Source: Halomicrobium mukohataei DSM 12286
GTDB taxonomy: Archaea; Halobacteriota; Halobacteria; Halobacteriales; Haloarculaceae
Reading direction: 5' to 3'
Length of the DNA stretch: 32,000 bases
Assembly (NCBI RefSeq): GCF_000023965.1
Contig: NC_013202.1
Location: 510,001 to 542,000, forward strand
The notes under the pieces are model-generated. The model did no database searches. It was not told the DNA's origin and saw only the letters and a list, made by a program, of their open reading frames with translations. Both the position numbers and the translations under genes were made by a program. Below are positions 11,621-32,000 of this stretch, piece after piece; the first letter of the stretch is position 1; every line of letters starts with the position of its first letter.

Positions 11621-11663
11621 AAAAACGTGGGCGAAAAAACGAGCGCTCGCAATGCTCGCGCTC
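11621..11663 (-). terminator. Candidate hisE terminator: hairpin plus two oligo-T tracts
   Basis: On the minus strand, 5 nt after the hisE stop, lies the hairpin GAGCGC-GAGCATTGCGA-GCGCTC (11641-11663). It is followed by T6 (11634-11639) and T5 (11621-11625). Oligo-T is the known archaeal termination signal. Confidence 0.45.
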
Positions 11664-11667
11664 GCTC

Positions 11668-11967
11668 CTACCGCCGCTCGGCCAGTTCGTCCCGCAGATC
11701 GCTCACGTCCAGATCTTTCATCGCCAGCATTACCAGCAGGTGGTAGACGATGTCGGCGCTCTCGTGGGCGATCTCCTCGTGGTCGTCGTCTTTTGCCGCC
11801 AAAATCAGTTCCGTCGTCTCCTCGCCGAGCTTTTCCAGGACGGCGTTCTCGCCTTTCTCGTGAGTGAACAGCGAGGCGGTGTAAGAGTCTTCGGGCAGGT
11901 CGGCCTTGCGCTGCTCGATGACGCTGAACAGTTCGTCGAGAATCTCGTCGGCGTCGGCATCGGTCAT
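11668..11967 (-). CDS. hisE: Phosphoribosyl-ATP pyrophosphatase
   Basis: 99-aa product MTDADADEILDELFSVIEQRKADLPEDSYTASLF...EEIAHESADIVYHLLVML, the MazG-like HisE signature. The ORF-track start at 11973 is a TTG; the ATG at 11967 is preferred. Confidence 0.9.
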   Translation of the reverse strand: MTDADADEILDELFSVIEQRKADLPEDSYTASLFTHEKGENAVLEKLGEETTELILAAKDDDHEEIAHESADIVYHLLVMLAMKDLDVSDLRDELAERR

Positions 11968-21265: not shown

Positions 21266-21390
21266 AGGTGCAAGACCGTCCTGCTCACTTCGTTGTGCGG
21301 GCTGGGACTCGCGTGCTCGATCCCTGTACGAGGCACGCACTCGGCGCGCTGACGGTTCGCTTTGCTCACCGTGATACGCGCCGAGAGAAG

Positions 21391-29917: not shown

Positions 29918-30367
29918 ATGGGTGAGAAGCGGTCGAATCACACGGTGTACAACGTCAACTACCATTTCGTGTGGTGTCCGAAGTCAAGCAAAGCGAAGCT
30001 TTGCGTACCTCGCGGGATCGAAGATCCCGCTCAGTATCGCTACACGATTCTCGAACCAATCGAGGATTCGCTGGAAGCGAGTTTCCGCGATGTGTGCGAC
30101 GAGTACGGTTACGAGATACTATCGCTACATATTTCGCCCGATCACGTACACTTGTTCCTATCAGCTCACCCGAAGTACGGGCCGAGCGAGATTGTACGGA
30201 CAATCAAGAGCATCACGGCACGGGAGATGTGGGAACAGCACGAACCGTTCTTGGAGGAGTACCTGTGGGGCGGTGGATTTTGGGAGGAATCGTACTACGT
30301 GGGGACGGCAGGCGATGTTTCGACCGACACGATTGAGCAGTATATCGAGCGAACGGAACACGTTTAG
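29918..30367 (+). CDS. tnpA: IS200/IS605 TnpA (Y1 HUH transposase) carrying a 17-aa in-frame insertion
   Basis: 149 aa with YHFVWCPK...YRYTIL, the HUH motif DHVHLFL and the catalytic-Tyr region ESYYVGTAG. The conserved CPKYR block is split by SSKAKLCVPRGIEDPAQ. Confidence 0.9.
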   Translation: MGEKRSNHTVYNVNYHFVWCPKSSKAKLCVPRGIEDPAQYRYTILEPIEDSLEASFRDVCDEYGYEILSLHISPDHVHLFLSAHPKYGPSEIVRTIKSITAREMWEQHEPFLEEYLWGGGFWEESYYVGTAGDVSTDTIEQYIERTEHV

Positions 30368-30699: not shown

Positions 30700-30711
30700 G
30701 GCCATCGAACC

Positions 30712-30735
30712 CTACAACCGTCCGTATGAGGGGTG
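30712..30735 (+). repeat. Solo end of the ~80-nt palindromic element (partial copy 3)
   Basis: CTACAACCGTCCGTATGAGGGGTG matches the reverse complement of 9249-9272 (CTACAACTGTCCGTATGAGGGGTG) at 23 of 24 positions. Confidence 0.7.
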
Positions 30736-30753
30736 CGGCGTTCGAGGTGGAGG

Positions 30754-30996
30754 CTACTGTGTCCACCTGATTTCGTACTCGAGTTCGTACCGCTGCTCGC
30801 CGCTGTCCGAGTCCGTGAGTCGTTCGAGTTCGACCTCGAACCGGGGCTGCTCTGGAACAGTGACGCGCTGTTCCGCCGTGTCGCTCGCTAACGTGACGTG
30901 CCCCGAGTCGATCTGATCGGCCGCGTCCCGCAACGCGCGAGCGATTTCGGCTCTCGGGCTCTGTTCCTCGGTTTTGAATAGTTGTTCTTCTGGCAT
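30754..30996 (-). CDS. Amphi-Trp domain protein
   Basis: MPEEQLFKTEEQSPRAEIARALRDAADQIDSG.VTL.....RVTVPEQPRFEVELER......EQRYELEYEIRWTQ follows the layout of that small family from memory. The ATG at 30996 is preferred over the track GTG at 31002. Confidence 0.65.
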   Translation of the reverse strand: MPEEQLFKTEEQSPRAEIARALRDAADQIDSGHVTLASDTAEQRVTVPEQPRFEVELERLTDSDSGEQRYELEYEIRWTQ

Positions 30997-31111
30997 CAGC
31001 ACACACTACGTCCCCGACCGGCATATAGATGTTCTTAGGTTGATGATTTGTCGGTGGATTTGCGGTCCCGATACCGGCCGCTGTTGACGCCGGAGACAGA
31101 GAGCCCGTATC

Positions 31112-31189
31112 ATACGGACCGTTGTAGCGATGTACTGGTCGTCTATCCCGTGGCGACGATCGCCGGTACGCGACGACAACGTTCCGTAT
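31112..31189. repeat. ~80-nt palindromic element bounded by inverted repeats, copy 2
   Basis: ATACGGACCGTTGTAG (31112-31127) ... CGACAACGTTCCGTAT (31174-31189), with an inner hairpin at 31136-31143 / 31155-31162. It aligns end to end with the reverse complement of 9257-9337. Confidence 0.7.
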
Positions 31190-31600
31190 CAGCCGTCAGT
31201 TTCGACGCGCTCCTCGCCGTCGAAGTGCGCGGAGTTGTCCCGGGGTTCGTAGCCGAGCGCCTCTTTGGCCCGCTCCAGGGAGTAGTACTTGCGATCGTTG
31301 TCGGAGACACCGACAGGCTCGCTACGCTCGCCTGTCGAGCCCTCGCTCGCTTCGCTCGCGAGGATGCCGTAGACGATATCGGTACCGGCTGGGATCACGT
31401 CGGGTCGGCGACGCGCTCCTCGCCGTCGAAGTGCGCCGAGTTGTCCTGGGGATCGTAGCCCAGAACCTCCTTCGCGCGCTCGATGGAGTAGTACTTGCGA
31501 TCGTTGTCGGAGACACCGACAGGCTCGCTACGCTCGCCTGTCGAGCCCTCGCTCGCTTCGCTCGCGAGGATGCCGTAGACGATATCGGTACCGGCTGGGA
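31189..31600 (-). repeat. Two tandem 206-bp units, each duplicating the 3' end of the adjacent epimerase gene
   Basis: Units 31189-31394 and 31395-31600 each begin (on the plus strand) with a stop-codon complement TCA. They repeat the gene tail found at 31601 to about 31745 and end in the same ~100 nt. Confidence 0.9.
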
Positions 31601-32000
31601 TCACGTCGGGTCGGCGACGCGCTCCTCGCCGTCGAAGTGCGCCGAGTTGTCCTGGGGTTCGTAGCCCAGAACCTCCTTCGCGCGCTCGATGGAGTAGTAC
31701 TTGCGATCGTTGTCGGAGATGCCGTAGACGATCTCGAAGTCGTAGTCGGCGAGGAGGGCTCGCTCGTGGATATGAGCGCAGTCGCGGTAGGAGAGCCACA
31801 TCGCCTGGCCGCGCTCGTAGTCGATCGGCGGATGGCCCTTCGTGAGGTTGCCGATGCGGACGTTGCACACGTCGATCCCGTACTCGTCGTGGTAGTACCG
31901 GCCGATGATCTCTCCGGTGGCCTTCGAGACGCCGTAGAGGTTCCCCGGGCGGGGGAACTCGGAGCCGTCGAGTCGGAAGTCGTCGTGGGTGCGGTACAGG
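31601..32000 (-). CDS. NAD-dependent epimerase/dehydratase family protein (C-terminal part; the 5' end is outside the window)
   Basis: The frame is open to the window edge and reads ...PGNLYGVSKATGEIIGRYYHDEYGIDVCNVRIGN... (the SDR YxxxK motif), ending ...NSAHFDGEERVADPT*. Confidence 0.85.
   Translation of the reverse strand, partial: LYRTHDDFRLDGSEFPRPGNLYGVSKATGEIIGRYYHDEYGIDVCNVRIGNLTKGHPPIDYERGQAMWLSYRDCAHIHERALLADYDFEIVYGISDNDRKYYSIERAKEVLGYEPQDNSAHFDGEERVADPT

Follow-up and report, generated by a model that had tools for sequence, protein, structure and literature searches.

A 57-nt double hairpin occurs twice behind the azf gene of Halomicrobium mukohataei DSM 12286. We consider it probable that this module is an ancient repeat kept by selection, situated in an untranslated copy of the azf tail, doubled by an unequal crossover and only incidentally in frame with the tail copy. 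According to this reading, the 57 nt would be one selectively kept copy of a ~60-nt double-hairpin family of the Haloarculaceae, and the module would sit in the second copy left by an old partial tandem duplication of about the last 150 nt of azf. Gene conversion would keep this tail copy like the working tail, and the module, which has no conversion partner, would be held by purifying selection. The working tail and the tail copy would have recombined once, recently, in an unequal crossover that added a hybrid unit of 206 nt. Much is known of small palindromic repeats in bacteria (REP, BIME and RPE), whereas those of archaea have hardly been studied. New here are the identity of the gene, the orthology of the module across genera, its quantified excess conservation, the covariation in the hairpin apex, a nested insertion and the proposed crossover origin of the second copy.

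The azf gene and the tail copies behind it

The analyzed window is the whole stretch of 32,000 nucleotides (positions 510,001 to 542,000 of NC_013202.1). It ends inside a minus-strand gene of 255 codons, which spans genome positions 541601-542368. Pfam places the product in the NAD-dependent epimerase/dehydratase family, and its database relatives carry the name Azf. The gene is azf, predicted to encode the haloarchaeal NAD-dependent glucose-6-phosphate dehydrogenase. An earlier note, made from the sequence alone, had spoken of an epimerase gene; this holds for the Pfam family, and Azf is the more precise name. The features of the locus are as follows (window coordinates).

31601..32000, minus strand: 3' part of azf, intact and without insert; the gene (255 aa) reaches genome position 542368, past the window end
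31395..31600, minus strand: unit 2, 206 nt, a hybrid unit defined by alignment with the gene tail and unit 3; spacer and 15-nt gene-like piece at 31569-31600, module at 31512-31568 (or 31514-31570), tail copy at 31395-31511
31189..31394, minus strand: unit 3, 206 nt; module at 31306-31362 (or 31308-31364), tail copy T3 at 31189-31305
31547..31569, minus strand: hairpin B, copy 1, 6-bp stem, loop GAGCGAAGCGA
31517..31543, minus strand: hairpin A, copy 1, 8-bp stem, loop GAGCGTAGCGA
31341..31363, minus strand: hairpin B, copy 2, in unit 3
31311..31337, minus strand: hairpin A, copy 2, in unit 3

The azf stop codon TGA is at 31601-31603, and the working tail copy T1 is the last 119 nt of the gene (31601-31719). 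Tandem Repeats Finder reported a period of 206 nt with 2.5 copies and 96% matches at 31203-31719. Each unit opens with a short spacer. Next come 15 nt that match the gene sequence immediately before the point of insertion, then the insert of 57 nt, and finally a copy of the gene's last 117 nt. Aligned with the intact tail, the insert stands out as a clean gap, with ...GGCATC on one side and TCCGAC... on the other. The tail copy of unit 2 differs from the azf tail at 1 of 119 nt. Unit 3 agrees exactly with unit 2 in its spacer, gene-like piece and module; its tail copy T3 is diverged by about 10%, has its own ending (...VETDG, then a stop), and is orthologous to the sole extra unit of two related genomes, G002 (Halomicrobium katesii) and G003. 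Both insert-bearing units lie downstream of the azf TGA, and the module lies 32-47 nt past this stop codon. Since 206 is 3 x 68 + 2, each unit is out of frame with the preceding one.

The 57-mer has exactly two copies in the window, at 31308-31364 and 31514-31570, with 0 mismatches; 0 matches were obtained in 100 shuffles. It is free of stop codons in the tail-copy frame, and the positions and the translation claimed earlier were found to be exact. Because of the flanking TC, its borders are ambiguous by 2 nt, and 31306-31362 and 31512-31568 are equally valid. The genome search that had been proposed for the 57-mer returned the two array copies only, even with 9 substitutions allowed, and related modules were found genome-wide.

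Contigs from four DNA runs were compared as well, and yielded no evidence on copy-number variants of the array. Those built from short reads break off at the azf repeat; a 235-nt contig of a separate run, possibly from the same strain, covers 31279-31513 without a mismatch. It passes from the tail of unit 3 through the module of unit 3 and the tail copy of unit 2 to the edge of the module of unit 2. Joints in metagenomes that skip ~416-421 nt were left unused, being from other organisms and of low likeness. That the module is a palindrome of low complexity arisen by chance in GC-rich DNA, or an artefact of assembly, is extremely improbable: besides the 235-nt contig, the absence of matches in the shuffles, orthologues in at least seven genomes and a covariance-model E-value of 2.5e-19 stand against it, and the modest folding z-scores and the likeness of the hairpin B sequence to a GCGA tandem are what speaks for it.

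A 76-nt palindromic MITE occupies 31113-31188, exactly on the TGA of the last tail copy, and has duplicated that stop, TCA being present at 31110-31112 and at 31189-31191 (T-G-A on the minus strand). G003 has an empty site there, the TGA being followed directly by GACGGGCTCTC. In three runs, contig depth across 31122-31195 was 10-100x that of the flanks. Thus, the 76-nt MITE is highly repeated. Its central loop represents a second abundant loop family, GCCACGGRGTA, with at least 35 hairpins.

In G002 and G003, the intact azf is followed by a 46-47-nt spacer including the gene-like piece, the 57-nt module and one tail copy. An exact-pattern scan detected the junction layout also in Halosimplex sp. 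TS25, Halosimplex carlsbadense, 'Halobacterium sp. CBA1126' and one metagenome contig. The layout is therefore carried by three Halomicrobium species, two Halosimplex, CBA1126 and the metagenome contig (seven carriers). Small ORF calls (P0122-P0129) place it in further metagenomes; P0129 has a 48-nt variant, and in P0123 the homology of the tail copy extends at least 19 codons upstream of the insert. Annotation pipelines wrongly report azf tail copies as little 'epimerase' ORFs. All seven carriers have spacers that can be aligned with each other, and thus the junction arose only once. Ahead of the insertion point, homology with the gene extends for 23-31 nt and no further. The idea that the spacer is a decayed extension of the duplicated gene segment was rejected: similarity continues for only 8-16 nt past the invariant 15 nt (significant in 3 of the 7 genomes), and the rest gave no signal.

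The azf gene itself is a single-copy orthologue in 37 of 41 relatives, all of which read ...VYGISDNDRKYY... without the insert. A comparison of orthologues had been proposed in the earlier note; 20 of 20 inspected azf orthologues have the same uninterrupted reading, and the insert is present in 0 of 20. The 120 longer Azf proteins from the database (120/120) also have no insert and align only with the part of the query that follows it. No second tail was found at 17 other orthologous loci. In the azf tree, whose backbone is poorly resolved, the array carriers fall in three groups. This patchy distribution requires several losses or lateral transfer.

These comparisons bear on a different history, in which the 57 nt are the relic of an in-frame insertion into the working azf tail, a clean tail being regained later and T3 left behind. 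We consider this history unlikely. It would explain why the 57 nt are in frame and stop-free in five of the seven lineages, since only such an insert could survive in the gene, and it agrees with the conserved ending of T3, with the long upstream homology of P0123 and with the fact that members of the family do enter working genes in frame (uvrA, mutS and tnpA). However, an insert-bearing azf is absent among the 20 orthologues and the 120 database proteins. Moreover, all carriers share a clean first tail and a homologous spacer, so that an insert-bearing tail could have been functional only before their common origin, and the frame was later lost in the modules of 58 and 85 nt.

Five of the seven carriers have a module of 57 nt; that of the metagenome contig is 58 nt long, and that of TS25 is 85 nt. 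In TS25 (L022 3050-3134), a second hairpin with the loop GACCAGCGGGA is nested at the central base of the hairpin A loop. The nested loop has the same GA-2bp-3nt-2bp-GA design and stands on a 12-bp inner stem; the whole module has a folding energy of -61 kcal/mol. Hairpins thus appear to insert into hairpin apices.

In Halosimplex carlsbadense (L025 4000-5290), a 1.25-kb island of 38-46% GC separates the azf stop from an older tail that is truncated at its 5' end. It has one ORF of 281 aa with weak matches to RPA_C and MCM winged-helix domains, and the locus presents three azf tails in succession. The 3' end of azf appears to be a repeated landing or recombination site. Two candidate traces of insertion were discarded. 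The word TAATTCGG, shared by the azf spacer and a hairpin-bearing piece at C1:1557506, was considered as the end of an element; with 19 occurrences where 35 are expected, in unrelated contexts, it is a chance match. A hairpin arm copied from the target was considered for uvrA and azf, where the match of 4-5 nt is too short.

Reading frame of the insert and of the tail copies

The earlier note had attached meaning to the fact that the insert is a multiple of three and free of stop codons. For the copy behind azf, we conclude that the in-frame property is incidental and without present meaning, because the units are untranslated remnants after a stop codon. Furthermore, the frame is not preserved, since the orthologous modules include lengths of 58 and 85 nt, and the tail-copy frame of G003 has no start codon. 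The length of a single insertion into non-coding DNA is divisible by three with a chance of 1 in 3, and the fit is such a coincidence or, possibly, a relic.

Translation of the units, either as a 69-aa protein that starts at a GTG overlapping the TGA or as a frameshifted C-terminus of Azf, is very improbable. In this genome, such a GTG overlaps the preceding TGA at each unit start, the codon usage of the units looks gene-like, and ORFs of this type are called in other assemblies. However, gene-like codon usage is inherited from the gene via conversion. In G003, no ATG, GTG or TTG precedes the insert in the tail-copy frame, and a TAG precedes the azf stop by five codons. Genomes vary in the offset of the tail-copy frame from that of azf, and for this reason a read-through or frameshift extension of Azf was rejected. 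In addition, TS25 and the metagenome contig have a broken frame, and the changes within the module track pairing, not codons.

One observation fits both the translated and the relic reading. T3 of G003 differs from T3 of this genome (G000) and G002 at five positions within the last ten codons (31189-31220 in the window), and all five are synonymous third-position changes. This is unexpected for a remnant that was never translated. T3-type ends may at times serve as the working tail in collapsed alleles.

Conservation, structure and family of the module

Between clades, the module is identical at 53-55 of 57 positions, compared with 52-60% identity at the four-fold sites of azf and 76-83% over the whole gene. 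The binomial P ranges from 3e-11 to 4e-7 against the four-fold rate and from 1e-4 to 5e-3 against the gene average, with genome pairs that are not independent. The two loop-centre bases differ among almost all lineages and the adjacent spacer has drifted; thus, mutation is not lacking, and the locus contains an internal neutral control. All other changes among the 57-nt copies are compensatory: a G-C pair in the hairpin A stem is A-T in three genomes, and a G-C pair in the hairpin A mini-stem is A-T in G003. The 58-nt copy of the metagenome contig departs further, by a single base change in its 3' tail and by a disturbed loop in hairpin A. In the alignment, 99% of the cells pair, and double-sided changes were found at 5 pairs, compared with 1.5 in shuffles. 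No double-sided change was found when the partners were slid. These comparisons of sequences point to purifying selection on both the sequence and the pairing of the module, which, being nearly unchanged across genera, is probably functional.

The tail copies behave differently from the module. They are nearly identical to the gene tail of their own genome and unlike the tails of other genomes, which indicates concerted evolution by gene conversion. The module has no conversion partner, yet it is conserved between clades. The azf locus is a clean natural experiment, in which a partnerless module stands beside a freely drifting spacer; that the module hardly varies from genus to genus is direct evidence that a non-coding hairpin is constrained.

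The alternative is that the modules are selfish or neutral non-autonomous mobile DNA, whose conservation comes from recent spread or repeated site-specific insertion. Dispersed copies, up to 73 per genome, are what such DNA would leave, as is the variation between close relatives: G002 has neither the block with the C1:1166202 paralogue nor the 60-nt mutS unit. The nested hairpin of TS25 can be read in the same way, and so can the short flanking repeats, 2 nt (TC) at azf and 5 nt (GACGG) at uvrA. However, the spacer has diverged at a near-neutral rate beside an unchanged module, which makes a recent transfer of the block unlikely, and the stems of the paralogues differ, so that no master copy is at hand to re-seed an identical sequence. 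The module has no terminal inverted repeats, and neither a fixed target duplication nor a partner enzyme was identified. We therefore regard this alternative as rather improbable, and keep to selection on an old copy.

The module forms two hairpins on either strand. Their 11-nt loops, GAGCGNAGCGA, differ only at the central base, in agreement with the near-identical cores described earlier. On the sense strand, each loop is GA, a 2-bp stem, a GNA triloop and GA, with the core GCGAAGC (a GCGNAGC mini-hairpin). GCGAAGC is an extraordinarily stable DNA mini-hairpin with a 2-bp stem and a Tm of about 76 C (PMC10527192). The folding energy of the whole module is ordinary for its GC-rich composition (z from -1.5 to -2.6); the argument for structure rests on covariation and family membership, not on folding energy. 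Directly after hairpin A on the sense strand there is no T-run such as a hairpin-plus-T-run terminator would have, and the sequence reads GTGTCTCCGAC; other family members have one, for example that at 11640-11664. No match was obtained in Rfam 15 at E<=1 over 30700-32000 on both strands.

Loop cores of this type occur 136 times in the genome. The flanking stem is bimodal, with 94 cores having 0-2 bp and 40 having 4-10 bp. Among the 83 hairpins of the apex design with an outer stem of at least 5 bp, the outer and inner pairs of the mini-stem are Watson-Crick in 81% and 90%, respectively; where the same loop pattern has no outer stem, the values are only 29% and 26%. The outer mini-stem pair of the 83 is G-C in 33, A-T in 29 and C-G in 5, and the inner pair is C-G in 73. 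Since mini-stem pairing is tied to the outer stem, the hairpins are a true structural family and not an effect of composition.

A covariance model (R1) was built from the azf modules and one paralogue. At E<=0.01 it found 28 matches in this genome. Of 61 Haloarculaceae genomes sampled, 52 gave matches, at 1 to 73 per genome. The 28 matches and the bimodal stems contradict the possibility, named in the earlier note as a refutation, that the insert is unique to this array and the likeness of its cores due to chance. The better copies follow a loose consensus of NGTC, hairpin 1, GGCT, hairpin 2 with the stem CGRNAGAC, and then GTG. In this small and variable set, copies start with CGTC (3), GGTC (3), TGTC (2) or GAGTC, and the azf copy with CATC. 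Hairpin A stems keep to the loose consensus CGRNAGAC and hairpin B stems vary widely, the loops being the conserved part. In BLAST searches, the azf module is linked with a paralogue at C1:1166202 and with numerous copies in two further genomes, G001 and G005. With this paralogue as the query, the azf modules of G002 and G003 matched at 84% and many G001 and G005 copies at 86-94%.

With a crude gene caller of our own that omits tRNAs, 58 of 65 single hairpins of the loop family were intergenic; 15 of the 65 lie at most 100 nt past a same-sense stop, and 3 at most 100 nt from the start of a divergent gene. The window itself holds members at 21352-21372, 18 nt after tRNA-Asn, and at 11640-11664, with its T-run, after the gene ending at 11668, and the family that had been suspected from such copies is borne out.

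Relatives of the module are also found inside translated genes. In uvrA (C1:308105-308163), a 51-nt double hairpin is inserted between ...VLV and DGTSITEV and flanked by GACGG repeats. It is present in 4 of 24 genomes, namely four Halomicrobium species, and absent in the 20 others. Its identity between species is 48-49 of 51, compared with 62-65% at four-fold sites. In mutS (C1:350925-351009), a 60-nt unit of hairpin plus linker lies in the variable C-terminal linker of this genome and G003, and is lacking in G002; a compensatory stem change in G003 alters two residues, D to G and S to P. Thus, two DNA-repair genes contain family modules as translated sequence. In the window, a Y1 transposase gene (tnpA, 29918-30367), paired with a TnpB-type gene as in IS200/IS605, carries a 51-nt in-frame double hairpin at 29984-30034 (plus strand), as had been noticed before. 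This insert exactly fills a 17-residue gap relative to a paralogous IS200-type transposase, and its DNA fold has a z-score of -4.8. Both of its hairpins have GAA triloops, one being GCAAA-GCGAAGC-TTTGC. The earlier proposal that palindromes enter genes in frame therefore stands for the family, and fails for the copy behind azf.

Called ORFs of 973 aa and 282 aa read through family hairpins in their last 10-30 codons (C1:2367043-2367105 and C1:1767586-1767606). Judging from these two calls, module sequence may supply or lengthen protein C-termini.

As for function, the module might work as a single strand in its folded form; the likeliest place for this is the 3' end of the azf transcript, where it would terminate or protect the transcript or bind a protein. 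We treat this role as possible, at somewhat less than an even chance; it is proposed because of the constant sense orientation, the family-typical distance of 32-47 nt from the stop and the constraint on the sequence. The missing T-run behind hairpin A speaks against it, and the equal constraint inside the translated uvrA suggests a general role at the DNA level, in binding a factor or in maintaining the element, over a function particular to the 3'-UTR of azf. Should 3'-end formation or a factor that binds the hairpin lie behind the constraint, the module would bear on how haloarchaeal transcripts end and are stabilised, which is poorly understood.

Gene-end duplication and comparison with known repeats

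Unit 2 is the same as unit 3 through the spacer, the gene-like piece, the module and the first ~27 nt of the tail; beyond this point, it follows the gene tail to the stop and the spacer with 1 mismatch. A hybrid middle unit with identical junctions is what an array formed by unequal crossover requires, and G002 and G003 have a single unit. The second unit is, as read from this pattern, probably the product of a recent unequal exchange between the working tail and T3, within the identical first 27 nt. The single unit of G002 and G003 dates the exchange after the split from these two.

The family is also frequent in tandem arrays: 19 of the 65 hairpins lie within six arrays (period at least 40 nt), and these six together make up 0.48% of the genome. 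At C1:1557506, a 58-nt hairpin-bearing piece is placed between direct repeats of ~50 nt that consist of a gene tail, its stop and 17 nt; this genome has 3.3 units, G002 has 1.3, and a single, decayed copy is present in G003. Stable hairpins provoke slippage and rearrangement. Slippage or unequal exchange promoted by hairpins would explain why hairpins mark gene-end duplications. The azf locus shows how hairpins, gene conversion and unequal exchange may jointly build and keep gene-end arrays.

Genome-wide, there are 53 tandem arrays with a period of at least 40 nt, for example at C1:222433, 869964, 2591728 and 2825301 and at C2:191909. A gene 3' end lies within fourteen of them, and in many the units share 98-100% identity. 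The GA-loop family is present in only 6 of the 53, and the remaining arrays may carry other hairpin types.

A broader proposal is that these repeats are an undescribed class of the Haloarculaceae: double hairpins of ~50-60 nt with a GNA apex, whose selected copies have a genome-wide function as single strands and which duplicate gene ends. We put this forward tentatively and regard it as doubtful in its full form. If true, the folded single strand would be, for example, a recognition site for a host protein or one encoded by an element, selection at the nucleotide level would operate on the scale of a genus both in 3' flanks (azf) and in translated genes (uvrA and mutS), and the double-hairpin elements would have a causal role in gene-end duplication. 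An incomplete search of the literature found no account of the family in archaea, which is weak evidence of novelty.

Several known systems share parts of this picture. Unequal exchange with concerted evolution accounts for the hybrid 206-nt array and for the tracking of the gene tail by its copies, and not for the module or its conservation. MITEs such as Correia elements and the haloarchaeal HqIRS are likewise small, non-coding, dispersed, structured and polymorphic between close species. In contrast to them, the present family has no terminal inverted repeats matching an IS and no fixed target duplication (2 nt at azf, 5 nt at uvrA), and the genuine T-N-A MITE of 76 nt that adjoins the array looks quite different.

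Rickettsia palindromic elements (RPEs) resemble the family in that palindromes lie in frame inside working genes, here uvrA, mutS and tnpA, and also between genes. RPEs are about 100-150 bp, bacterial and unrelated in sequence. Entry in frame into a working gene, with absence from the orthologues, marks an RPE, and this description is right for the family and not for the azf copy, which lies outside the translated gene.

REP and BIME sequences are GTAG- and CGTC-tagged families of bacterial extragenic palindromes, and the survey of them lists bacterial phyla only (PMC3733652). The present family differs from them in its archaeal host and in that both hairpins of a unit point the same way; it also appears to differ in having a conserved loop on stems that vary between copies, loosely alike in hairpin A and widely different in hairpin B. 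In the small and variable set of copies compared, no clear GTAG or CGTC tag is apparent (NGTC in general, CATC at azf), and no RAYT-type partner was identified, the one Y1 transposase examined being that of tnpA. The apex here is a GNA mini-hairpin flanked by GA on both sides. The likeness to REP and BIME is nevertheless broad. Both are short, GC-rich hairpin repeats in tens of copies, located mostly just after genes and occasionally within coding regions, and often paired into composite units with conserved linkers; with 58 of 65 hairpins intergenic, the family is dispersed, mostly extragenic and near gene 3' ends, as REP and BIME are. The literature ties REP and BIME to 3' stabilisation of mRNA, to termination and to local rearrangement.
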